Shown: positions 16,553 to 48,890 of the stretch, piece after piece
How the letters are laid out: the number at the start of each line of letters is the position of its first letter
Position numbering within the stretch: position 1 is the first letter of the stretch
Origin: Dehalococcoidia bacterium UBA1141
GTDB lineage: Bacteria; Chloroflexota; Dehalococcoidia; Lucifugimonadales; UBA3495
DNA: 64,000 bases
Direction of reading: 5' to 3'
NCBI GenBank assembly: GCA_002311385.1
Contig: DCAE01000109.1
Coordinates: 118,385-182,384, forward strand
The notes under the pieces: model-generated
The model's database searches: none
What the model saw: the letters and a program-made list of their open reading frames with translations, nothing else
What the model was told of the DNA's origin: nothing
Position numbers and translations under genes: made by a program

Positions 16553-17761
16553 ATGACCAGCAACCCCACCAACACTTCTCGTAGCACAGCAATCGTCGCT
16601 ATATCCAGTCGTGGGGCGGTAATGGCCCGAAGATTGGTGGACCGTCTGGAAGGTCCGGTGGAATTGCATGTGTCCCGACGATACTCTCAGCCAGCCGGTT
16701 CTGAAACTTCCTTCGAACTGCCAGCACGGCCTGTTGTTCAAGAATTGTTCAACACAGCGAAAAGTTTAATCTTGTTCATGCCCGTCGGCGCGGCCGTCCG
16801 GCTTTTGGCCTCGTCCCTAGATGACAAACACTCCGACCCGGCAGTCGTCTGCGTCGATGACGGCGGCCGGTTCGCTGTGAGCCTGGTTTCCGGGCATCTG
16901 GGTGGCGCGGACGCCTTGGCCCAAGAAGTAGCGGCGGCTCTGGGAGCCACCCCCGTGATAACATCGGGATCCCACGCATTGGGTGTGTTCGCCGCCGACA
17001 TGCTGGGCCGTGAATTTGGCTGGACCATCGAAACTCGACCGGGCCACCTGACCCGCGCCAGCGCCGCAGTGGTGAACGGTGAGGCAGTGGGACTGTTTCA
17101 AGACGCAGGACAGACGGATTGGCAATCGGCTGACCAAGAACTTCCAAATAACATGACGATTTTCTCGTCGATCGGCGCAGTCATGGGCTCCGACTGCGCC
17201 GCAGCGTTGATCATCACCGACCGAAACGACTCAGAATTATCAGACTTGAAATCAATCGAAGATGAGGCCTCGAACAAGGCTGTGGTAGTCTACCGGCCCA
17301 AGACTTTAGTGGCCGGTATGGGTTGCCGCAAAGGCGTCTCTGCGGATCATCTGTTAGAGCTTCTAACCAAGGCCTTTGAAGCCAACGATCTGTCGTTAAG
17401 CAGCCTCAGTTGCATCGCTACGGCGGATTTGAAACGAGATGAACCCGGCTTGATTGAACTGGCGGCCAAATACGATGTGCCGCTCCGCTGCTACAGCACA
17501 GGCGAGCTAAATTCGGTGTTCGGCGAAGAAAGTTCAAACGCGACAACTGGAATCGGCAATACGGTCGCAACCGCCCGACCAAGGGTGCACGGCCTGCTGG
17601 GTGTTTGGGGAGTTTCAGAGCCTGCCGCCCTGTTGGCCGCAGGGAGCAGGGAACTACTGGCGGAAAGAATCAAGACGGACCGGGCTACGATTGCTATAGC
17701 CCGTATTGGACACCTTCAGATTTTATCGGCCTCCTCGTCAACCGCCGGGAAAAGCGAATAG
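16553..17761 (+). CDS. cbiG: cobalt-precorrin-5A hydrolase
   Basis: N-terminal CbiG domain (AIVAISSRG...), a middle domain, and the C-terminal LVAGMGCRKG...IATADLKRDEPGL segment. Confidence 0.8.
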   Translation: MTSNPTNTSRSTAIVAISSRGAVMARRLVDRLEGPVELHVSRRYSQPAGSETSFELPARPVVQELFNTAKSLILFMPVGAAVRLLASSLDDKHSDPAVVCVDDGGRFAVSLVSGHLGGADALAQEVAAALGATPVITSGSHALGVFAADMLGREFGWTIETRPGHLTRASAAVVNGEAVGLFQDAGQTDWQSADQELPNNMTIFSSIGAVMGSDCAAALIITDRNDSELSDLKSIEDEASNKAVVVYRPKTLVAGMGCRKGVSADHLLELLTKAFEANDLSLSSLSCIATADLKRDEPGLIELAAKYDVPLRCYSTGELNSVFGEESSNATTGIGNTVATARPRVHGLLGVWGVSEPAALLAAGSRELLAERIKTDRATIAIARIGHLQILSASSSTAGKSE

Positions 17762-17763
17762 CG

Positions 17764-18972
17764 ATGCCCACGACCGAGAGCAAACTTCTGGGGCCAAAGG
17801 GCTGGTCTTTCCCTGATGACCCAGCGGACATACGGTTAGCTCTCCTGGCCAAAATCGACGGTCTGAAAGAAACGCTGGAGGCCGGAGTAGACGAAGGAGA
17901 ACAAAACAGCACCCTGGCATCTGGGGTGGTTGACGCCTTGTATGACGCCGGGCTCTTTGCGATAAAATTACCCCGAGAGTTGGGCGGGGCAGAGGCCGAT
18001 TTGGTCACCCAGATGGAAGTGATAGAGGCGCTGAGCCGCATTGAGCCCTCTGCCGGATGGTGCACCATGATTGGGGCCACAGGGATCGGCCTTATCGGCG
18101 CCCACCTTCCAGATGAGGCAATCTCCCAAATCTTCCCCGGAGGCAGTGTTCCTAGGAGCGCCGGGGCTTTCATGCCCATGGGCAAGGCTGAGACCGTTGA
18201 TGGAGGTTACTTGGTCAACGGACGCTGGTCTTTTGCCAGCGGAATCCGTCACTCCCACTGGTTGTCGGCGGGCGCCCTTGTGGTCAAGGACGGGAAGACA
18301 ACCGATGAGTACATCAGGGCGGTGTTCCCAACTTCGGATGCAGTGATTCACGACAACTGGGATGTCGCTGGCCTCAAAGGCACGGGCAGCTGCGATTTTT
18401 CAGTATCAGGCCTCTTCGTTCCTCAGGAGTTCACCTACCCCCGGGCGGCCGCTGAGCCCAAACGAGGAGGCTCCTTATACCGCCTGGGATGGCCCGGTTT
18501 CGTCGCCTATGAGCATGCCGCATTTGCATTGGGAGTAGGCAGGCGAGCATTGGACGTGATTGTTGCGGAGGCCAGCGCGAAAATCCGTGGAATGCAACCG
18601 TCGCGTTTGGCTTCAAGGCCTTCGTTCCAAAAGTCCCTCGGCGAGTGCGACCTGAGATTGAAGGCCGCCAGGACGTTGGTGATCCACCTTTTGGAGGAGG
18701 CCTGGGATCAGGCCAGTCAAGGAGTCATCCCGGGGCCTCAACTTCAAGGGGAAATGCGTAGCTCCGCCACCTTCGCTACTTCGGTGGCTCTAGATGTTGT
18801 GACCACCGCTTTTCGCTACGGTGGTGGTTCGGCTCTTTATACCACCAGCGTTCTACAGAGGTGCCTGCGGGACCTGAACGCCGCTGCTCAACACCTGATG
18901 GTTAGCGATTCCGCATACGAAAATCATGGGCAGTTCATGTTGGATATCCCTGACGCTGACCCCATGGGTTGA
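17764..18972 (+). CDS. acyl-CoA dehydrogenase-fold flavoprotein (type-2 ACAD / group-D flavin monooxygenase-like)
   Basis: ATG 17764 lies 2 nt after the cbiG stop. Contains ...GLFAIKLPRELGGAEADLVTQMEVIEALSRIEPSAGWC... and DNWDVAGLKGTGSCDFSVSGLFVPQEF. Paralogous to 38449..39633. Confidence 0.8.
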   Translation: MPTTESKLLGPKGWSFPDDPADIRLALLAKIDGLKETLEAGVDEGEQNSTLASGVVDALYDAGLFAIKLPRELGGAEADLVTQMEVIEALSRIEPSAGWCTMIGATGIGLIGAHLPDEAISQIFPGGSVPRSAGAFMPMGKAETVDGGYLVNGRWSFASGIRHSHWLSAGALVVKDGKTTDEYIRAVFPTSDAVIHDNWDVAGLKGTGSCDFSVSGLFVPQEFTYPRAAAEPKRGGSLYRLGWPGFVAYEHAAFALGVGRRALDVIVAEASAKIRGMQPSRLASRPSFQKSLGECDLRLKAARTLVIHLLEEAWDQASQGVIPGPQLQGEMRSSATFATSVALDVVTTAFRYGGGSALYTTSVLQRCLRDLNAAAQHLMVSDSAYENHGQFMLDIPDADPMG

Positions 18973-32509: not shown

Positions 32510-33163
32510 ATGACCCAGCCAGTTCAGCCCTGGGAGCAAGGTACTAGCCCTGTTAGGGTAGCCGTATGGTACGACTACATTTGACCCTGGTGCTACGTCG
32601 GCCTGGAAAGAGTCGACAAGCTGGCCAAAGAGTACGATATCAAGGTGGAGGGGCGGGCCTACCTCCTGCGTCCCGATACCCCCAAAGAGGGATCGCCTAG
32701 GCCACCCCGGCCCGGCGAAACCGAGGATGAATTGTCCGACCCACTGCGCAGTCAAGCCAGTGAAGCTGGCCTAATCATGCGCCCTCCCTCGGTAACCCCC
32801 AACACAATGTATGCGCTTCAGGCCACCGAGTATGCCCAGCAGCAAGGCTTGTTCATGGAGTTTCACCACGCCGCCTACGTGGCGTTCTGGGAGAACCGCC
32901 AGGACTTGGGCGATTTGGCCGTTATAGAAGAAGTGGGGCGGGAGGTTGGGTTAAATACCAAGGAAATGATGGAGCGGTTGGAAAGCAACCACTACGAAGA
33001 AGCAGTGATGGGCCAGTACCAGGAAGCATTGCAGTACGGCATCAGCGGCATTCCTACTTTTTTGGTCGGGAATCTGATGTTCACCGGTGCCCACCCCTAC
33101 GACATTTTCAAATCCGCCATGGGGCGGTTGCTGTCGCCCGAGGAACCGCCGGCGTCAAGCTAG
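32510..33163 (+). CDS. DsbA/FrnE-like thiol-disulfide oxidoreductase, candidate selenoprotein (U-P-W-C)
   Basis: ATG 32510 (GGGAG upstream) is in frame with ORF 32645..33163 through a single TGA at 32582..32584. The context VAVWYDYI-U-PWCYVG is the DsbA-family CxxC strand. The C-terminus carries GISGIPTF. Confidence 0.75.
32597..32617 (+). promoter_or_regulatory. SECIS-like hairpin 12 nt after UGA
   Basis: GUCGGC - CUGGAAAGA - GUCGAC, 6 bp including one G-U pair. Confidence 0.45.
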
Positions 33164-37448: not shown

Positions 37449-38182
37449 TTATTTTCGGGCCAGAACTTCTACCGCTACCACGGCCTGATTCTTCGTGCGA
37501 GCGTTTCGGAATGTGCGTAGTACGGCAGCGTCTTTGAAGCCTGCTTGGCGGAACTCCTGAAGGAAGACTACGCCCTCCTTGGCTCCAGCCACTCAAGCAA
37601 ACCAATTCTCAGGTGTTGGTTCTACTTTCTCTGAACCGGCTTCCCGCAGAACAAGCTCCGCCGCAAATACGCATCCTCCAGGCTTCACCACTCGGGCAAG
37701 CTCTGTGAATATCTTTGAACGTTCCGAGTTCAAGTTGAATATCCCATTAACCAACGCCACATCTACGGAGAGATCTTCCAAGGGCAGGCTTTCTGCGTCA
37801 GAGTGAAATATCTTGATATTGGTGGCCCCGGATTCCAGCACGGCCTGTTCCATGCTCGATAGCATCGCCGAACTAAAATCCACAGCCAGTACTTGACCTT
37901 GGGGCCCAACACGCCCAGCGGCAATGATGGAGTCCAATCCTGCGCCGGAGCCCAAATCCAATACCGTCGCTCTTGATGGAATCTCCGCCAACAAGGACAG
38001 GTTAGAGACGCCAGCGAATGCGTCTACAGCCACCGCGGGCAACCCCCTGGCGGGATAGCGCCGACACTCTCGGCTAAATCCCGGCCAACGGGGAACGGAT
38101 GGTCCTCATCAGGGTGTTGAGCAGCCCTGCTATATGCTTCTCGAACGCCCTCTCTAAGACCCGAAACATTTATTTCATTCAT
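37449..38182 (-). CDS. ArsM-like class I SAM methyltransferase, candidate selenoprotein, also carrying a one-base frameshift
   Basis: The track ORF 37593..38042 continues in frame past TGA 37595..37593 for 47 codons to TAA 37451..37449 (PENWFA-U-VAGAKEGVVFLQEFRQAGF...). The N-terminal 47 codons from ATG 38182 (MNEINVSGLREGVREAYSRAAQHPDEDHPFPVGRDLAESVGAIPPGG) are shifted at a G5 run (38043..38047 on the + strand). SAM motif VLDLGSGAGLD. Confidence 0.7.
37560..37580 (-). promoter_or_regulatory. SECIS-like hairpin 12 nt after UGA
   Basis: AAGGAGG - GCGUAGU - CUUCCUU, 7 bp including one G-U pair. Confidence 0.5.
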
Positions 38183-38448: not shown

Positions 38449-39633
38449 TCAGAAACTGCCCTGGGGTTCCAACCCCAGATAAAACTGGCCAGCAGTCTCG
38501 TAGTTGGTGAGGCGGCCTTGGATGTGCTGGGTAATCACCCGGACATCCTGAAACTGGCGCTGAATAGGGTTGCTGGCAAAAATCGCGCTGGAGCCGCACA
38601 GGTTATAGGTGATATCAACTACCTCCGCCGCTTTACGTATTGCGAAGGTGGCTGCTAGGCGTAATTGAATGCGCTCTTCGGTGGAAACAGCTTGGTTCTC
38701 ACATGCGCTTTTCCAGATTGACGAGACACTCTGGCCAAGAAAGGCGTCGGCCGACTGCAGAATCGCTTCCCCTTCGCCTATGAGCCTTTGGGCCGTGGAT
38801 TGGTCTTGTAAAAGATTGGATGTCCTGAGAGGATTTTTCGTCTGCGAAAGTTCGATTGCGGTTATCAAGCTGGAGCGAGCGATGCTAAGGGCCACGGTTG
38901 CATCACCCGAGGCGAAAAGCAGGGTCCTGGGAATAACGTACAGGGGTCCGTCTTCCCGCCGAGGGTCTGCCAGGTCATAGGTCCGCCCACTGGGTACGAA
39001 CAAGTTATCCACCTGAAAGCTGAAGCTGCCAGTACCCCGGAGTCCGCTTACCTGCCAAGAATCTTCCAGAAAGGTTGCTTCAGACTTAGGAATGAGCATC
39101 ACTCTGGGATTTTCGCCCGCCGCCAGACCGCTTTGCTGTTGATTCACGGGGTTGATGGGAGCGAGGGCGGCCAGCCAATTGGCATGGCCGCTGCCGGTGC
39201 TGAAATCCCAGGTGCCGCTTAATCGATATCCCCCATCCACCGGAACGGCGTTCACCGACGAAGTGGGAGGACCGTTTGCTACGACGGCTCGGCTCTCGCC
39301 CCAAATCTCTCCTGCGATTTTCTCCGGCATAATGACCGAGGCTGTTGCGAATACATTATTCTGGTTTACACACCATGCAGTACTGCCATCGACTCGGGCG
39401 AATGTTCTCACGACTTGCAGAAAGTCCGGGAGACTCAACTCCGTACCCCCTAATGAGCGTGGCACAAGAAGGCGGAATAGGCCTCGCTCGGCCATTTCGC
39501 CTACCAAATCCGGGGGTAACCGACGCTCGCAATCGATGCGGTCCGTTTCTTGGGCGATGCGGTCGGCTAACTGCCGGGCAGCTTGGAGTAGCTCGCCCTG
39601 GTCGGTTTCTGAGTTGTTTTGTTTGATTGGCAT
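38449..39633 (-). CDS. acyl-CoA dehydrogenase-fold flavoprotein (type-2 ACAD / group-D monooxygenase-like)
   Basis: ERGLFRLLVPRSLGGTELSLPDFLQVVRTFARVDGSTAWC and DSWQVSGLRGTGSFSFQVDNLFVP. Paralog of 17764..18972. Confidence 0.8.
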   Translation of the reverse strand: MPIKQNNSETDQGELLQAARQLADRIAQETDRIDCERRLPPDLVGEMAERGLFRLLVPRSLGGTELSLPDFLQVVRTFARVDGSTAWCVNQNNVFATASVIMPEKIAGEIWGESRAVVANGPPTSSVNAVPVDGGYRLSGTWDFSTGSGHANWLAALAPINPVNQQQSGLAAGENPRVMLIPKSEATFLEDSWQVSGLRGTGSFSFQVDNLFVPSGRTYDLADPRREDGPLYVIPRTLLFASGDATVALSIARSSLITAIELSQTKNPLRTSNLLQDQSTAQRLIGEGEAILQSADAFLGQSVSSIWKSACENQAVSTEERIQLRLAATFAIRKAAEVVDITYNLCGSSAIFASNPIQRQFQDVRVITQHIQGRLTNYETAGQFYLGLEPQGSF

Positions 39634-40242: not shown

Positions 40243-40561
40243 TCAAATTCTCTCCTTGAATATTTTAAGAGCGCTGCACTTAGGGTACGCCCTCACAGGA
40301 GATATTAACACAGAGTCCCAGCCTCAAGTCAGTGGACAAGCATCTCCGCCGACGCTACCATGCCTTCACATTGGCTACTGGAGATTAGATCGCAGGCTGA
40401 AGAATACTGGCCGGAGAATCCAGCCGGGAACGGGTGTAAGATCCAGCACTTCCCAACACCGGCCATGATTCTTGCTTTCAATACCAATCCCACTGGCCGA
40501 TCCTGCCGTAAGAAATGTTGAAATAATATTGCCCCAAATTTTCGATAACAGGAGCGATGCA

Positions 40562-41662
40562 ATGGGAAGTTCCATAAGAGGTAATCGTAGTATCACAGCC
40601 GTTTTGTTACTGGTGCTCTTTGGGCTATTCTTGGGAATAGCGTGCACGGGTCCGGCGGGTCCGGCAGGTGTCCAAGGGCCCCAAGGGGCTGCCGGCGAGC
40701 AGGGGCCTCAGGGTATCGCCGGTCCCCAAGGGCCAGCAGGAGTTGCGGCACAGGCAAGCGCCGCAATTTCTAATCAGCAATCGCAGCAATCCGAAGAAAC
40801 CGAAAACGAGAACGAAAATTCAGCATATGGTAAACCGACTATCTGGGGGGATCAGCCGGCCTACGGGATAAGCTTCAGCTCCCCCAATGGAATTGCGATA
40901 GATTCATCGGACAACGTATACGTCACCGAATTTCGCGGGAACCGGGTGCAAAAATTTAGTTTCGATGGAGTCTTGGTAGGGCGGTGGGGCTCGGAAGGAA
41001 GCGAAGATGGTCAATTTCAGAATCCAACGGGAATCGCCATTGATGGCGAAGGCAACGTTTATATCTCCGAGAGCGGCAACCACCGTGTGCAGAAATTCGA
41101 CTCAGACGGCAATTGGATCACTTCATGAGGGTCGCAAAGGTCGGGCGAAGGAGAATTTCTTTCTGCGATGGTTATAGCTATCGATTCCGATAGCCGCCTC
41201 TAGGTGAGCGATTGGGGAAATGACCGTATTCAAGTTTTTGATTCCAATGGCGCATATTTGGATAGCTGGGGGTTGAGTGGAAAAGAGGAAGGCCAGTTGT
41301 TCACCCCCACTGGGGTCAAGGTAGATAGCGAGGGCAATGTTTGGGTCGTTGACCGAGGCAACAACCGGGTCCAGAAATTTACCCGGGATGGCGAGTTTCT
41401 GGCCACGTGGGGCGCCGCAGGCGACGACCAAGGCCAATTTGGAGTTCCAACCAGCATCGCCTTTGATAGCGACGGCAACTTTTATGTCTCCGAGGTGGAG
41501 AATTCACGGGTGCAGATATTCAATTCGGAAGGGGAATACATATCCGATCTTGCTTCGGCGTCACTCTCCAATCCCCACGGCTTGGCTTTCGACAGCAATG
41601 GAGACCTCTATGTGGCTGATACGGGAAACAATTTCATAAAGAAATTCAGCTTGGCAGATTAG
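40562..41662 (+). pseudogene. secreted collagen-like (Gly-X-Y) / NHL-repeat protein interrupted by two in-frame stops
   Basis: ATG 40562 (AGGAG upstream), signal peptide ...LLLVLFGLFLGIAC, GPAGPAGVQGPQGAAGEQGPQGIAGPQGPAG, then NHL repeats. One frame runs throughout, with TGA 41126..41128 and TAG 41201..41203 inside repeat consensus positions. Confidence 0.7.
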
Positions 41663-42344: not shown

Positions 42345-43919
42345 ATGAAATACGACGTTGTTATCGTCGGCGGTGGCGCTGCCGGATCGGTGTTGGCCAG
42401 CAGGCTAGCCGCAAACGCGAATACCTCAGTTCTTTTGTTGGAAGCAGGGCCGGATTATCCCGACCCTGCCAACCTGCCCGACGAAATCAAGTTCGGCCAC
42501 ACGAGATTTGCGGAAGCTCCGGACTCGGAACACAACTGGGCTCTGCGAGGAACCATCACAGAGGAGCAGGGGGAGATTCACGTGGCCCAAGGCAAGGTGA
42601 TTGGCGGAGGCTCGTCAATCAACGGTCAGGCTATGCAAAGAGGGTTCCCCGAGGATTTTGACGCTTGGTCGTCTATGGGCAACGATGAATGGTCCTACGC
42701 CAAGATTCTGCCTTACTTTAGGAAGTCGGAGCAGGACTTGGACATTCGTGATGATTTCCATGGGACGGATGGGCCAATGCCGGTCAGGCGCCGTCAGTCG
42801 GGCCCCATGCCGGATATCCAGAAGGCCTTCCACGAGGCATGTTTGCAAGAGGGCTACGGAGCGACGGAAGATACCAATGGCCCAAATCCATCGGGCATCG
42901 GCGTGTCCCCATCAAACAACCTAGACGGCGTTAGAATGAGCGCGGCTATGACCTATCTCGGGCCAATGCGCCACTGCCTCAATCTCACCGTGAGGGGAGG
43001 AGTTTCCGTCCGGAAGGTCCTGTTCCAAGATCTTAAGGCCGTGGGTGTTGAGGCCGAAAGCGGCGGCGAGGTCTTCACCGTTGAAGCAGACCGGGTGGTC
43101 TTGAGCTCCGGGGCCATAAAGTCGCCCCACCTGCTAATGCTCTCAGGAATCGGCCCCCAAGACCAGCTTCAGGAATTTGACATACCGCTGGTCCATGAGC
43201 TCCCCGGAGTGGGACAAAGCCTATGGAACCACCTCAGCGCCCAAGTCGCCTTCAAGGTCAAGAACGGGGCCACCCTCGTTGGCGACGTTGATGCGGTGCA
43301 CTTTAGCCTGCATTACACGTCACAAGGCTCCAGCGAAGCCAACGATATGCTACTGAGGACCAGCTCGGTGGTCGACGAAAGGGTGGAAAAGGTGCCCGGC
43401 CTGCGCACGATGTACCTGGCCGGAGGAGTCTCGCCAGAAGAGATGGGAAGAATATCGTGTACTCTTGGGTTGCCCGAAGGTTCAGGATACGTCAAGTTGG
43501 CATCCGCCGACGCAAGCGAACAGCCGTCATTTAACTACTGCTTTCTACAACATCCAAACGACATTCGGCGGGTGAGGGAAGGCGTGCGTATGTCGGTAAA
43601 ACTTCTAGAGTCAGACCCCTACAAAGACGTGGCCGATTACAGAATACAGCCAACGGATGAGGTTCTGTCCGACGACGACGCTCTGGATTTGTGGATACGT
43701 CAAACCGTGGGCACAGCCAGACACGTATCCGGCACCTGCAAGATGGGACCCGATTCAGACCCCATGGCCGTGGTTGATCAATACTGCAGAGTCAAAGGGG
43801 TAGAGCGATTGTGGGTGGTTGATGCGTCGGTGATGCCGAGAGTTCCCAGGTCCGGAGGCTGTCACGCCACTGTCCTCATGATTGCGGAACGGGCTGCCGA
43901 CTGGATTGGGGCAAGTTAG
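42345..43919 (+). CDS. GMC-family FAD oxidoreductase (choline dehydrogenase-like)
   Basis: YDVVIVGGGAAGSVLASRLA, GKVIGGGSSINGQ and the C-terminal GTCKMGP...LWVVDASVMP. Confidence 0.9.
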   Translation: MKYDVVIVGGGAAGSVLASRLAANANTSVLLLEAGPDYPDPANLPDEIKFGHTRFAEAPDSEHNWALRGTITEEQGEIHVAQGKVIGGGSSINGQAMQRGFPEDFDAWSSMGNDEWSYAKILPYFRKSEQDLDIRDDFHGTDGPMPVRRRQSGPMPDIQKAFHEACLQEGYGATEDTNGPNPSGIGVSPSNNLDGVRMSAAMTYLGPMRHCLNLTVRGGVSVRKVLFQDLKAVGVEAESGGEVFTVEADRVVLSSGAIKSPHLLMLSGIGPQDQLQEFDIPLVHELPGVGQSLWNHLSAQVAFKVKNGATLVGDVDAVHFSLHYTSQGSSEANDMLLRTSSVVDERVEKVPGLRTMYLAGGVSPEEMGRISCTLGLPEGSGYVKLASADASEQPSFNYCFLQHPNDIRRVREGVRMSVKLLESDPYKDVADYRIQPTDEVLSDDDALDLWIRQTVGTARHVSGTCKMGPDSDPMAVVDQYCRVKGVERLWVVDASVMPRVPRSGGCHATVLMIAERAADWIGAS

Positions 43920-43949: not shown

Positions 43950-43976
43950 AGGCGCTTCCCGGACCGGGAAGCGCCT
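43950..43976. terminator. bidirectional terminator hairpin
   Basis: AGGCGCTTCCCGG-A-CCGGGAAGCGCCT, flanked by A/T runs on both sides, between convergent genes. Confidence 0.8.
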
Positions 43977-44008: not shown

Positions 44009-44611
44009 CTAGTCTTTCGGCACCATCAGCCATTTTTGTTGGGCGGCGGCTGGGCTTAGCCACCGCTCATGGGCCTCTTGCCTGCCTGGCGGCACCTCCA
44101 CCCCCAGTCCGTCAGCCAAACGCGTCATGAAATTGAACTGGCATGTAATTAGGGCCACCGATAGTATTTCCTCATCGCTTAAGCCAAGGGCTCGAAGCGC
44201 TTCCACGTCCGAGCGCTGCATCGAAGTGGGATCTCTGGTAAGTTTCGACGCATAATCCAACATTCCTCGGGTTTGAGGGTCTAGTTCAGCATCGTTATAG
44301 TCGTGCATCACGTGGCTGGCCAACTCGGGGTCGTCGGAGTGCTGACGGAGGAACCCTCCGTGAGCCATCGTTCAATATCGGCATTTGTTTATCACCGAAA
44401 CCACCGTGGCGATGGCTTCTTCCTGAACTCTGGTCAGATTTGAGCCCCCAAAGAACAAGGCCTGGCTGAGGTTAAGCACCGATTCCATCGCTTTCGGGTT
44501 GATGGACATGACCTTAATCACCGGGGGCGGATCGCCGGATTTTGGCTCTGTTTCTCGTATCCAAGACATATCGTCACCATCCGGATGGTAGATTTGGTGA
44601 GATAGTACCAA
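44009..44611 (-). CDS. AhpD/carboxymuconolactone-decarboxylase-family peroxidase-related protein, candidate selenoprotein (C-R-Y-U)
   Basis: Track ORFs 44372..44611 and 44009..44368 are one frame joined by TGA 44374..44372: ...VVSVINKCRY-U-TMAHGGFLRQH.... This matches the CMD-family CxxC-x3-H motif. The start may be ATG 44569 (MSWIRE). Confidence 0.75.
44345..44361 (-). promoter_or_regulatory. SECIS-like hairpin 10 nt after UGA
   Basis: ACGGAGG - GUU - CCUCCGU, a perfect 7-bp stem. It can be extended by 3 more pairs across a C-C mismatch. Confidence 0.55.
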
Positions 44612-44793: not shown

Positions 44794-46473
44794 TTACATA
44801 CGCTCGGGGGCGGTCATACCCATTAGTTCCAACGCACGGCGAAACACGATCTGGGCCGACTCCACCAACTTCAACCGCGCCAAGGAGACATCCTGGTCTT
44901 CGGGGTTGGCAGAGAGTACGCGGCAGTTCTCATAGAACCAATGGAATGCCGTGGCTAGGTCCATGGTGTAGTGGGGCAGGTGGTGTGGTTCCAGCGTTGT
45001 GGCCATGTGGGCGACTAGCTCCGGGAGCCGCAGCATATACCGTATCAGACTCAGTTCGGAGGGATGGGTCAGAAGGGAGACATCGCCTTTAGACCAGTCA
45101 ATCTCCTGGCTACGGGCCAAGGTCAGTATGCTGGCATTTCTGGCGTGGGCGTACTGAACGTAGTAGACAGGGTTTTCCGACGACTGTTCTTTGGCCAACT
45201 CTAAGTCGAATTCCATCTGGGTCGACGGGGTTCTGGCCAAGAAAAAATACCGGCAGGCGTCAGTGCCCACTTCATCGGCCAACTCTCTGAGGGAAACAAA
45301 GTCCCCAGTGCGCTTTGATGCCTTTACCAGTTCCTGACCTCGTTTTAACGTGACCATCTGGGAAATTAGGATGGTCAGTTTGTCCGAATCTACACCTAGA
45401 GCGGCCACCGCCAGCTTCATGCGAGGGACATGACCTTGATGGTCCGCACCCCAGATATTCACCACAGCGTCGAAATCGCGCTCGATAAATTTGTTGTAGT
45501 GGTAGGCGATATCCGACGCAAAGTAGGTGGGTTCGCCACTGGAGCGGACCACCACATTGTCCCGGTCGTCGCCCATCACACTGGAGTTAAACCAAAGGGC
45601 TCCGTCGCGCTGCGAAAGGTAGTTGTTCTCCCTCAGAAGCTCCAATGCTTTATCGTATTCACCGTGCTGAAACAGGGTTCCCTCGCTGAACCAGTTGTCG
45701 AATTCCACGCCTATCAGCGATAGATCGGCGCGAATCAAATCGACCATCTTCTCCCTGGCCAGATTGCCGATTTCTTTGACGCCTTGCTCTTCATCCATAT
45801 GAGCAAATCTAGCACCTTCGCTAGCCAGAATTTCGCCAGCTAAATCTAGGATGTAATCGCCGACGTAGCCATTGGAGGGCATCTCGGCTTCCTGACCTTG
45901 GGCCTGCATGTACCTGGCGAAAACGGACCGGTAGAAGACGTCCATCTGGGTGCCAGCGTCATTGATGTAGTACTCTCTGGTCACGTTAAAGCCCGCTGCG
46001 TCCATTATGCTGGCCAAAGCGCTGCCTAATACGGCGCCCCTGGTGTGGCCAACGTGGACCGGCCCGGTGGGGTTCACGCTGACGAACTCAATCATCACCT
46101 TTCGACCGCGGCCCATGGTCACGCTGCCGAAACCCATACCCGCTTCCCGCACCGCTTCCACCTGTTGTTGAACCCAACTGTCCCTTAGGTAGAAGTTGAT
46201 GAAGCCCGGTGGGGCCACCACGACTCGGTCCACCTCTTCTCCAGGTTTGATCCTGTTGGCGAGCTCTTGAGCCAGTTCCAGTGGGTTGATGCGGGTGGCG
46301 CGGGCCAAACGCAGCGGAAGGTTGGTAGAAAAGTCACCATTCTCTGGATTGCCGGGGCGCTCCACCATGATGTCCGGCATGGTATCTAGTTGAATCAGTC
46401 CGTCCGCTCGGGCCTGCTCCAAGGCATTGGCCACCAATTGGGTTATCGAATCCAAAACTAGGGCGGTTTCCAT
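44794..46473 (-). CDS. argS: arginine--tRNA ligase
   Basis: Class I HIGH-type SVNPTGPVHVGH, a KMSKS-like region and the anticodon-binding C-terminus ...RLKLVESAQIVFRRALELMGMTAPERM. ATG 46473 preferred. Confidence 0.93.
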   Translation of the reverse strand: METALVLDSITQLVANALEQARADGLIQLDTMPDIMVERPGNPENGDFSTNLPLRLARATRINPLELAQELANRIKPGEEVDRVVVAPPGFINFYLRDSWVQQQVEAVREAGMGFGSVTMGRGRKVMIEFVSVNPTGPVHVGHTRGAVLGSALASIMDAAGFNVTREYYINDAGTQMDVFYRSVFARYMQAQGQEAEMPSNGYVGDYILDLAGEILASEGARFAHMDEEQGVKEIGNLAREKMVDLIRADLSLIGVEFDNWFSEGTLFQHGEYDKALELLRENNYLSQRDGALWFNSSVMGDDRDNVVVRSSGEPTYFASDIAYHYNKFIERDFDAVVNIWGADHQGHVPRMKLAVAALGVDSDKLTILISQMVTLKRGQELVKASKRTGDFVSLRELADEVGTDACRYFFLARTPSTQMEFDLELAKEQSSENPVYYVQYAHARNASILTLARSQEIDWSKGDVSLLTHPSELSLIRYMLRLPELVAHMATTLEPHHLPHYTMDLATAFHWFYENCRVLSANPEDQDVSLARLKLVESAQIVFRRALELMGMTAPERM

Positions 46474-46836
46474 TGACAGTCCTTTTCGTGGTGATCGCCT
46501 GGTTAGTCGCCGGGCTAAAGTGAGAACCAATTACAGTTACGGAAGAGCCGCAACATTAGCTGACTCATCTCGGCATAGTGTTTCCAGCAAATGTATTAAA
46601 CGCAGAAAAAGCCGGGCCGTTTGTTTCAGGTATCCGGCGTGACTGGGCCTTAATGAAATAATCCTACCATAATCATATTGACCGAACTAATAGATTTCAA
46701 TTAGATTTCGATCGGTTGCATGGCGGGTTCGTTACCATATCCGCCCATAGGATTTCGTCATCTGATGGCCAAAAACGGTTGACATGGTATCCATCAGTCG
46801 TAGAATTTCGGACGGCACTAGATACAATAACCATAA

Positions 46837-48890
46837 ATGAGAGGTTACGTTAATCCCATGAGATTCAAGTTTCCGATACTCGCCCTATTGATGACACTGG
46901 CAGTAGGTATACTTGCCGCTTGCGGCGGCGATGCCACCGCCACGCCGACCACCGTTGAGGTGGAAAAAATCGTAGAAGTTGAAAAGATTGTCGAGGTCGA
47001 AAAGATTGTAGAAGTAACGCCGACCCTCGTGAGTTGACCGTCTCAGTGGGTTCCGGCCGAGACACTGAGGTAGTTATAGCTTTCTTGCCTTCGATGCTCA
47101 GCGTTCGAGCCGGGGACACCGTTACTTGGAAGCTGAACGCAGATGAGATTCACACCGTTTCGTTCTTGAGCGGCGCACCAACACCGAGGTTTGAAAGGCC
47201 AATTCCGGATGCCGGACCCACTGACTTTATGCTAAACCCCCAGGCTGCGTTCCCCACACGGGCGCCCGGAGCCCCTGTGGAGACTTGCAGCGGCACCGGA
47301 TTCGCCAGCTCGGGCACGATGTCCGATGTTCCCCCGGCTCCGGGAGCACCACCCAACAATGAGTTTAGCCTAATATTTGACACCCCTGGAACCTACGATT
47401 TCGTTTGCATCATCCACCCGTTCCAGATCGGAACGATTGAAGTCTTGGCCTCAAACGCCCAAGACGTGCCTTCGCAGGCTGACATAGACGCCCAAGCAGA
47501 GGCGCAATTAGCGCCGTTACTTGTGGAGTTGGAGCAGATCAAGCAAAGCTCCCCGATCGCGGTCACCCAAGAGGCCGGTCCCAATGGCACTACTATATGG
47601 CACGAGCAAGCAGGAACTCGTGGCCTCAGCAATTTCACCGAAGTTTTCGAATTCTTGGCCAAGGACATCACAATTCAGGAAGGGGATACGGTAGTCTGGA
47701 CCTCACCCACCTTCCACACTGTGACATTCCATCCCGGACAGGACGCACCTGAGTTTGTGGTTCCAGAACCACAAGATGCCGGACCTCCATTGCTTAGGAT
47801 AAATCCGGCCGTGTTATTCCCGGTGAAGCCGGCCTCCGAATTTAATGGAACCGGATATTGGAACTCTGGCACCATCGGTCTGGCCGCACCTTTTGGCACA
47901 AACTTTAGCATGACGTTCAGTCAAACCGGGTCATTCGATTATATCTGCGCTCTGCACGTGTCGATGGGCATGGAAGGCTCAGTCACTGTGGTCGAGCGCC
48001 AAGCGCCCCACACAGCGTTGCTGGACGCGAATTTATTCGAATACCCCGAAGGTCTGGCTATTGACGGCGAAGGCAACATCTACGCTGGCATGGCTCCCGC
48101 CGGCGAGATTAAGAAAATCACCCCGTCTGGCGACGTAGCCACCTACGCCCAGTTGCCAGCTCCTGGAGCCGGTTTCTTGGTTGGCATGGACTTCGACGCC
48201 GCGGGCGACCTTTATGCCGCCATGTCTTCCTTCGACCCCGAGACCCATGGGATATGGAAGATTTCAGATGACGGCGCCACCACCGAGTTATTCGACAGCC
48301 TACCGGTAGCAGGATTCCCCAACGTTCTCGCATTTAATAGCGATGGCGAGATGTTCGTCACCGACACCATCGGTGGAGGTATATGGCAGGTAGATTCGCA
48401 AGGCAACGTCAGCACGTGGGCCATGGACGAATCCATGATTGGGGCCATTCCCCCAGGCCCGCTGGGTTTCCCCATAGGCGCAAATGGCCTAGCCTTTGAC
48501 GAAGGCAAGACATACGTTTACGTCAGTGTTACCGATAAGAGCCGCATCGTCCGCATTCTCGTAGAAGAGGACGGCTCCGCAGGCGATGTTGAGGTCTTCG
48601 TTGAGGACACGGCCAACCTGGGCGGCCCCGACGGCCTGACGTTTGGCCCATCTGGCACTCTATACGTCGCCCTCTTCGGAAGCGACGGGGTGGCGATGGT
48701 GTCCCCAAGTGGTGAAATCAGCCCAATCGTGTCCGGAGGACGACTACAGAATCCTTCTGACGTCAAGTTTGGCATTGGCGATGACAGTAACACGCTGTAT
48801 ATCGCCAACTTCGCAGCGGCCCGCCTACTCGGCTTGGTGCCCGGCACGCCCCTGCCCGGAGTGCTAATGACGCATATAGCCACTCCTTAG
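46837..48890 (+). CDS. lipoprotein with two cupredoxin-like domains and an SMP-30/strictosidine-synthase-like beta-propeller; signal peptide separated by a frameshift
   Basis: ORF 46837..47037 encodes a signal peptide plus lipobox (LAVGILAACGG) and (VEVEKI)n. It is offset by one nt from ORF 47034..48890. Type-1 Cu-like ligand patterns are CIIHPFQIG and CALHVSMGMEGS. The C-terminal half has propeller-like repeats. Confidence 0.65.
46954..47016 (+). repeat. 18-nt coding tandem repeat, 3.5 units (VEVEKI)
   Basis: GTTGAGGTGGAAAAAATC / GTAGAAGTTGAAAAGATT / GTCGAGGTCGAAAAGATT / GTAGAAGTA. The units differ at several codon positions, yet each full unit encodes the same hexapeptide VEVEKI. Confidence 0.9.

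Follow-up and report, generated by a model that had tools for sequence, protein, structure and literature searches.

An AhpD-like gene of a Dehalococcoidia bacterium, interrupted by an in-frame UGA, as a probable member of a known selenoprotein family

The family designated 'AhpD-like protein' (COG2128), whose motif CxxU contains selenocysteine (Sec, U), was described as a new family of selenoproteins, with 27 sequences from the Sargasso Sea (Zhang, Fomenko & Gladyshev 2005, PMC1088965). As 'AhpD-like 1', again assigned to COG2128 with the motif CxxU, it was represented by 299 sequences of the Global Ocean Sampling (GOS) collection and ranked fourth in abundance (Zhang & Gladyshev 2008, PMC2398784), and a review of 2026 lists it in a table as 'AhpD-like protein, TIGR01926, CxxU' (PMC13188914). 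The gene considered here lies on the minus strand of a 64,000-nucleotide stretch of DNA from Dehalococcoidia bacterium UBA1141 (contig DCAE01000109.1, positions 118,385 to 182,384), referred to below as the window. Positions 44569..44009 are best read as one gene, whose product is an AhpD-like thiol/selenol oxidoreductase (TIGR01926/COG2128) of 186 residues; the UGA at codon 66 would specify selenocysteine. To this reading, which is drawn from comparative sequence analysis, we assign a probability of roughly 0.93.

The chemistry of the AhpD family has been examined in proteins that carry cysteine at both positions of the motif. The AhpD proton relay comprises Glu118, Cys130, His132, Cys133 and His137 in the M. 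tuberculosis enzyme, and Glu36, Cys48, Tyr50, Cys51 and His55 in PA0269 of P. aeruginosa, a protein with weak H2O2-reducing activity (PMC3141380). Loss of DR1765 from D. radiodurans leads to H2O2 sensitivity, and complementation by variants with mutated CxxC cysteines falls far short of that by the wild type (PMC8945050).

Two open reading frames (ORFs) of the minus strand, 44611..44372 and 44368..44009, share one frame, and the gap between them consists of only a TGA (44374..44372) and an ACG codon for threonine. Translation over the interruption yields ...EEAIATVVSVINKCRY*TMAHGGFLRQH...ADGLGV..., in which the asterisk marks the TGA; the peptide around this codon is ...QEEAIATVVSVINKCRY-[TGA]-TMAHGGFLRQH.... 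The initial annotation had described one frame split by nothing more than the TGA and a threonine codon, and the frame and translation of 44611..44009 bear this out. Its first ORF, which opened with the TTG at 44611, requires correction. Full-length relatives all start M-[SAP]-W-I, and for this reason the true start is most likely the ATG at 44569..44567 (MSWIRE..., 186 residues). Between that ATG and the TAG at 44009 the sole interruption of the frame is the TGA, which falls within C-R-Y-[TGA]-T-M-A-H. The complete coding sequence, 186 residues plus TAG with the in-frame UGA as codon 66, is accordingly placed at 44009..44569 of the minus strand from the frame, the TIGR01926 and Pfam CMD matches, the starts of homologs and tblastn alignments. 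The ATG at 44368, which follows the TGA and ACG, is the start taken by ORF finders for the second ORF.

Profile searches were run on the joined 186-residue product with the UGA read as cysteine. The product matches TIGR01926 (peroxidase-related enzyme, NCBIfam) with 131.4 bits against a cutoff of 81.8, over profile positions 19-175 of 178. It also matches TIGR00778, the ahpD core domain (33.3 bits, cutoff 27.8), and the Pfam CMD family PF02627 (41 bits, cutoff 23). The Pfam match holds at the superfamily level only: a gamma-carboxymuconolactone decarboxylase function is not implied, because true gamma-CMD enzymes are without the CxxC relay (PMC3141380). Five solved structures (PDB 2pfx, 3c1l, 2oyo, 6k40 and 2prr) match the joined product with E values from 5e-28 to 2e-22 over about 150 residues.

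These structures also locate the TGA. All five read C-x-Y-C-x-x-[AS]-H-G opposite C-R-Y-[TGA]-T-M-A-H-G, and the TGA therefore stands at the second cysteine of CxxC. Twenty-five metagenomic relatives have TGC or TGT at the TGA column, though such Cys-type relatives occur only at about 28-34% identity. On this basis, and from the retention of TGA in the orthologs described below, codon 66 (44372..44374, minus strand) is predicted to be read as selenocysteine. The relay residues E51, C63, Y65, U66 and H70 are all present at the spacing of AhpD, so that the active-site segment E51-x11-C63-R-Y65-U66-T-M-A-H70, encoded by 44360..44419 of the minus strand, displays the proton-relay signature E-x11-CxxC-x3-H, as judged from TIGR00778, the structure alignment and the spacing in PA0269 (PMC3141380). 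The initial annotation had recognized a carboxymuconolactone-decarboxylase/AhpD core with a CxxC-x3-H signature, and this assignment is upheld by the three profiles and by the structure alignments; its placement of the UGA at the second cysteine of CxxC is likewise confirmed by the five structures and the 25 relatives.

The TGA is conserved among orthologs. When each GTDB species was represented by one genome, a scan gave 80 orthologous loci (designated here by L-numbers), all from Dehalococcoidia/SAR202/Chloroflexota metagenome-assembled genomes (MAGs) and 60-86% identical to the gene in the window. In these loci the tblastn alignments of residues 1-185 cross the TGA, which is found at the column in 80 of 80; TAA, TAG and sense codons do not occur there. 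A search of protein databases yielded dozens of clusters that are exactly 119 residues long and share 75-96% identity with the part that follows the TGA, the mark of one and the same split in many assemblies. Nucleotide differences among the orthologs are concentrated at third codon positions on both sides of the TGA (2248, as against 1038 and 861 at the other positions, in the 50 codons before it; 3968, as against 1507 and 977, in the 90 codons after it). By this measure both flanks evolve as translated sequence. The TGA in every ortholog and the coding signature on both sides together strongly imply a single 186-residue polypeptide.

Downstream of the UGA lies a hairpin that resembles a selenocysteine insertion sequence (SECIS). 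The stem begins 10 nt past the TGA and is perfect over 7 bp, ACGGAGG/GUU/CCUCCGU (44361..44345, minus strand); the loop GUU (44354..44352) starts with G, and the whole element, which is identified from its fold, its covariation and the comparison with paralogs, overlaps the codons for H70-G-G-F-L-R75. The sequence and its fold thus agree with the 7-bp hairpin that had been noted at this distance from the UGA. A three-pair extension proposed at the same time (G9-C33, C10-G32 and U11-A31, with the T of TGA numbered 0) does form in the window sequence, across a C.C mismatch, but orthologs do not keep these pairs, and the lower extension was dropped from the element.

The significance of the hairpin derives from its conservation across species and not from thermodynamics. 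A perfect 7-bp hairpin follows 17 of the 1,965 TGA trinucleotides in the window at a distance of 8-20 nt, which makes it a chance event of about 1%. Folding energy of the single sequence was rejected as evidence because it is uninformative (z about -0.85). In the orthologs, however, synonymous sites are constrained. All 79 of 79 TGA-type sequences have G as the first loop base, which is a four-fold degenerate site; the glycine wobble at +17 is only A or G in the same 79, and so always pairs with U25; the leucine wobble at +26 is C/T and the arginine wobble at +29 is T. Among 85 distinct sequences, 97.3% of cells are paired, compared with 42-63% after a shift of the partners by 1-3 columns. Changes on both sides are seen at two pairs in this set, 17-27 (77 GC, 5 CG and 3 GU) and 20-24 (49 GC, 25 AU and 4 CG). 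These two-sided changes coincide with the amino-acid changes G72 to A/E and F73 to L, which indicates that RNA pairing has been preserved at the expense of the protein. Distant soil clades of the TGA type, with the peptides HAEFLR and HAEVLR, form other hairpins there, equally far from the TGA and likewise with a loop that opens with G.

The decisive control for selection on the hairpin is provided by Gly-type paralogs, in which a glycine codon occupies the TGA column and the peptide H-G-G-F-L-R is the same. These sequences retain only 3-6 of the 7 pairs, with a mean of 4.5. Position 26 is C/T in 57 of 57 TGA-type sequences and in none of 5 of the Gly type (p = 1.5e-7), and position 29 is T in 51 of 57 as opposed to 0 of 5 (p = 7e-5). 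In Cys-type relatives the mean at the corresponding positions is 2.3 of 7 pairs. The comparative evidence that the hairpin serves as a SECIS is therefore strong, and covariation and the paralog control together sustain the SECIS-like interpretation that the initial annotation had given it. The further claim that this was the strongest such structure among three candidates in the window does not hold for folding energy, since the 9-bp hairpin of a methyltransferase candidate at 37595 (-24.2 kcal/mol, z -1.74) exceeds it (-20.8 kcal/mol, z -0.84).

A capacity for selenocysteine insertion is indicated by relatives of this organism. A full-length SelB is encoded by one orthologous locus of a Dehalococcoidia genome (L055:885-2747, minus strand; TIGR00475, 351.6 bits, cutoff 242.25), 7.3 kb from a TGA-type ortholog, and a truncated SelB by another (L048:1-1149, minus strand). 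The search for sel genes that had been proposed for this locus was thus fruitful near orthologs and empty in the 64-kb window. In tblastn searches with the E. coli proteins, SelA and SelD found nothing in the window or the collected loci, and SelB matched only in L055 and L048; neither selA nor selD was detected in these two 20-kb loci. ARAGORN reported no tRNA-Sec in the window or in the 80 loci, and the SelD signature G[C/U]GCK had no match in six frames of 1.77 Mb. Window ORFs of the size of SelA, SelB or SelD were considered and rejected: by NCBIfam they are ABC exporters, histidine kinases, HemA, AroA, LipA, MgtE and prephenate dehydrogenase. Dehalococcoidia are among the bacteria richest in selenoproteins in BSepDB, a database in which only genomes with at least two of SelA, SelB and SelD were analysed and which lists 'Dehalococcoidia bacterium 10f4566d-...' with 46 selenoproteins (PMC13326102). 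The same isolate label is borne by the assembly that contains L001, the closest relative (86% identical), together with L008, and also by a second assembly (L038), so that the listing corresponds to one of the two.

Two further genes of the window have in-frame TGAs at positions that align with cysteine, within 12 kb, and are followed at 12-15 nt by hairpins whose loops begin with G. One is a candidate DsbA/FrnE-like protein with a thioredoxin fold (32510..33163, plus strand; TGA 32582..32584), in which ...VWYDYI-[TGA]-PWCYVG... places the TGA at the first cysteine of CPWC, as U-P-W-C (UxxC); a stem-loop with the loop GGAA lies about 12 nt downstream, and the sole NCBIfam match is a weak one to a thioredoxin-like (seleno)lipoprotein family (45 bits, cutoff 190). 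The other is a candidate ArsM-like S-adenosylmethionine-dependent methyltransferase (about 38100..37455, minus strand; TGA 37595..37593), with the peptide ...PENWFA-[TGA]-VAGAKEG.... It is identified by the cysteine-aligned TGA and by the 9-bp hairpin mentioned above, which has the loop GUA and lies 12 nt past the TGA. Its top NCBIfam matches are arsenite-methyltransferase selenoprotein models, NF041537 (142 bits), NF047649 and NF041536, all below cutoff. These candidate genes, the SelB of L055 and the BSepDB listing support the use of selenocysteine in this lineage.

Several observations weigh against the reading of codon 66 as selenocysteine. The nearest full-length relatives carry glycine, not cysteine, at the TGA column, which is a nuance and not a refutation of the alignment with cysteine. 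The single-sequence folding energy of the hairpin is no better than that of shuffled sequences (-20.8 kcal/mol, z -0.84 to -0.85). There is no Rfam match in the whole window at gathering thresholds, and a search of 44250..44450 at E <= 10 gave no SECIS-type match, just a meaningless one to a small nucleolar RNA. The peptide H-G-G-F-L-R already fixes 4 of the 7 stem pairs, so that the independent signal at the RNA level consists of three pairs at synonymous sites, the loop G and the two covarying pairs, and the strict Gly-type control comprises 5 distinct sequences only. No selA, selB, selD or tRNA-Sec was found in the 64-kb window by ARAGORN, Rfam, NCBIfam or tblastn. The absence of sel genes from a piece of this size is uninformative, and the selenocysteine capacity of the organism is one that we infer from its relatives and from the three candidate genes.

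The TGA might instead be a true stop, marking either a decayed gene or two small genes, an N-terminal peptide of 65-79 residues and a 119-residue protein begun at the ATG at 44368. Gene callers split the locus in this way everywhere, hence the many 119-residue database entries; an ATG does lie two codons past the TGA, and the 64-kb window has no selenocysteine machinery. Yet no pseudogene would hold TGA at one column, as is seen here in 80 of 80 species that are 60-86% identical, or show a coding signature on both flanks, and a split into two proteins would sever the active site between C63 and H70. The methionine encoded by the post-TGA ATG is the conserved residue of T-M-A-H, and is replaced by Leu, Val, Ile, Thr or Ser in some orthologs. 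What real decay looks like is illustrated by the sole locus with an extra TAA (L077, 405-410), where TAA replaces the tyrosine codon directly before the TGA to give C-R followed by two stops; this is likely decay to a pseudogene or an error. A true stop at codon 66 is scarcely credible.

It is also very improbable that the UGA is recoded in some other manner, through hairpin-stimulated read-through by a near-cognate tRNA (inserting Trp, Cys or Arg) or through lineage-wide reassignment of UGA. Hairpins that follow a stop codon can stimulate read-through in general. Reassignment conflicts with the standard genetic code of the window, where 14 of 48 long ORFs end at TGA as an ordinary terminator. 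Read-through must contend with the catalytic cysteine found at this column in relatives and with the SelB encoded near the ortholog in L055. Three full-length proteins closer than the Gly type would seem to name the inserted residue, as TGG (Trp), CGA (Arg) or TTA (Leu) stands at the column in L081 (P0001), L082 (P0002) and L083 (P0009). Each of these rare variants occurs once, on a contig of about 1 kb, lies one base from TGA and still has the hairpin; they are probably sequencing errors or recent mutations that surface only because the frame is open, and were rejected as indicators of the amino acid specified by UGA. A different doubt concerns the hairpin and leaves selenocysteine in place: the 7-bp stem could be mostly a by-product of the codons for H-G-G-F-L-R, with a different or larger structure acting as the functional SECIS. 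The four pairs dictated by the peptide, the unremarkable energy and the unconserved lower extension all speak in favor of this possibility, which is nevertheless very unlikely. The synonymous positions needed for a full stem are fixed in the TGA type and free in Gly-type paralogs of the same peptide; substitutions in the peptide (G72 to A/E, F73 to L) are accompanied by joint changes of the paired bases; and the distant TGA clades with HAEFLR and HAEVLR build new hairpins at the same distance.

If the UGA is decoded as selenocysteine, as we prefer, the sequence of events may be outlined by analogy. As the ribosome arrives at the UGA, the hairpin would be bound by SelB with its GTP and Sec-tRNA(Sec), and selenocysteine would be inserted in competition with release factor 2. 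In the folded protein the selenolate of U66, placed by the E51/Y65/H70 relay, may attack a peroxide or the oxidized cysteine of a partner peroxiredoxin. Resolution of the adduct by C63 would produce an intramolecular selenenylsulfide, and a cellular thiol reductant would then regenerate the enzyme. Insertion, substrate and reductant are features that we infer; for the chemistry the models are the homologous proteins AhpD of M. tuberculosis, PA0269 of P. aeruginosa and DR1765 of D. radiodurans.

The Gly-type proteins merit a fuller description. As the nearest full-length relatives (P0034-P0106 among the proteins; L084-L095, L097 and L119 among the DNA sequences), they are 51-57% identical and have GGA or GGG at the column; a few of the nearest full-length relatives have Glu or Thr there instead. 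Their motif is C-R-Y-G-[AGS]-[ML]-T-H, so that the CxxC/CxxU pair is lost. Since GGA is one base removed from TGA, it is possible that these paralogs stem from the TGA type by a single TGA-to-GGA change, that is, from selenocysteine to glycine. Some Dehalococcoidia MAGs contain at least two TGA-type copies (L001 and L008, both on CAXXFI010000001.1; L028 and L054 in MAG B71T1B5), and the selenoprotein has therefore been duplicated within the lineage. In one locus (L038, 10139-10200) the TGA and the hairpin are kept, the latter through G-U pairs, but arginine replaces the relay residue His70 and the N-terminus has diverged.

The gene is flanked by argS (44794..46530, same strand) and by a convergent GMC oxidoreductase gene (42345..43919, plus strand). 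A terminator-like hairpin, found by a pattern scan of both strands, lies at 43950..43976, 33 nt past the AhpD-like stop codon, and appears bidirectional: its stem has 12 bp (9 of them G-C), with T-runs on both strands, and it is common to the convergent gene. A GMC-family flavin oxidoreductase (choline dehydrogenase/MftG-like) adjoins the AhpD-like selenoprotein gene in about 20 of the 80 loci, for example in L022 (10881-12419), L009, L017, L018, L020, L047, L059 and L063; the two genes are often convergent and share a terminator, as in the window. A functional link of the AhpD-like gene to an H2O2-producing GMC oxidase is conceivable. A rather improbable extension of these observations, which bears on the evolution of the family and not on what the gene is, would be that the TGA-type clade, multiplied in Dehalococcoidia/SAR202, gave rise to one-cysteine C-R-Y-G paralogs with a different chemistry, and that the recurrent pairing reflects a dedicated peroxide-scavenging partner of such an oxidase.

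Other features of the window are recorded here for completeness. Two ORFs encode HsaA-like oxygenase subunits of flavin-dependent monooxygenases (17605..18972, plus strand, and 38449..39633, minus strand; NF045629, below cutoff), and in L001 a 71%-identical HsaA-like copy stands directly beside the AhpD-like gene. At about 46980..47040 of the plus strand, the tandem repeat VEVEKI VEVEKI VEVEKI follows a lipoprotein-type signal sequence in an ORF that leads into a 618-residue cupredoxin/ScyE-like protein (47034..48890). NHL/ScyF-like ORFs occupy 40472..41662.

Standard gene callers split the gene into ORFs of 79 and 119 residues, which cuts the active site in two and leaves the protein unnamed. 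When it is read as a single selenoprotein, the AhpD-type redox site is complete again, a gain that concerns mainly annotation. Together with the DsbA/FrnE-like and ArsM-like candidates, the gene marks the organism as a probable user of selenium, a trait relevant to the trace-element ecology of marine and subsurface Chloroflexota. No new question is opened thereby: published work already covers the family and its CxxU motif, how abundant it is in the ocean, and the wealth of selenoproteins in Dehalococcoidia.

Comparison with the known proteins of the family places the gene without difficulty. Two NCBIfam selenoprotein families resemble it in having an AhpD-type domain, and the C-F-Y-U-T of NF041238 ('AhpD_rel_CFYUT alkylhydroperoxidase-related (seleno)protein') recalls its C-R-Y-U-T. 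Membership of NF041238 was rejected, since the match reaches 64.4 bits against a cutoff of 175 and covers only model positions 176-344 of 357; the N-terminal half of that family is lacking here. Unlike NF041537 ('ArsM/AhpD domain selenoprotein'), the present protein is not fused to a methyltransferase.

M. tuberculosis AhpD and PA0269 have in common with it the five-residue proton relay at equal spacing. The middle relay position is tyrosine in PA0269, as here (Y65), and His132 in the M. tuberculosis enzyme. In sequence PA0269 (2o4d) is a distant match only (E = 0.0027), and the structure-sequence comparison returned no match to M. tuberculosis AhpD, whose chain topology differs. No ahpC adjoins the gene as would befit an AhpC-coupled AhpD of the M. 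tuberculosis type, a statement that covers the immediate neighbors, the rest of the window not having been searched. The Cys-type TIGR01926 structures (DR1765, 6k40; 2pfx, 3c1l, 2oyo and 2prr) belong by sequence to the same fold family and share E-x11-C-x-Y-C-x3-H-G; they have cysteine and no downstream hairpin where this gene has UGA, the presumed selenocysteine codon. The closest agreement is with the AhpD-like selenoprotein family itself, in the TIGR01926 assignment, the CxxU motif with selenocysteine at the second cysteine position, the marine or environmental origin, and the stem-loop directly after the UGA with G in its apical loop. Compared with the published description of that family, the gene presents no substantive difference; it is a Dehalococcoidia/SAR202 member with the motif C-R-[YF]-U-[TA]. 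The AhpD-like gene is thus of an already known kind, correctly identified in the initial annotation and missed by automatic gene calling.

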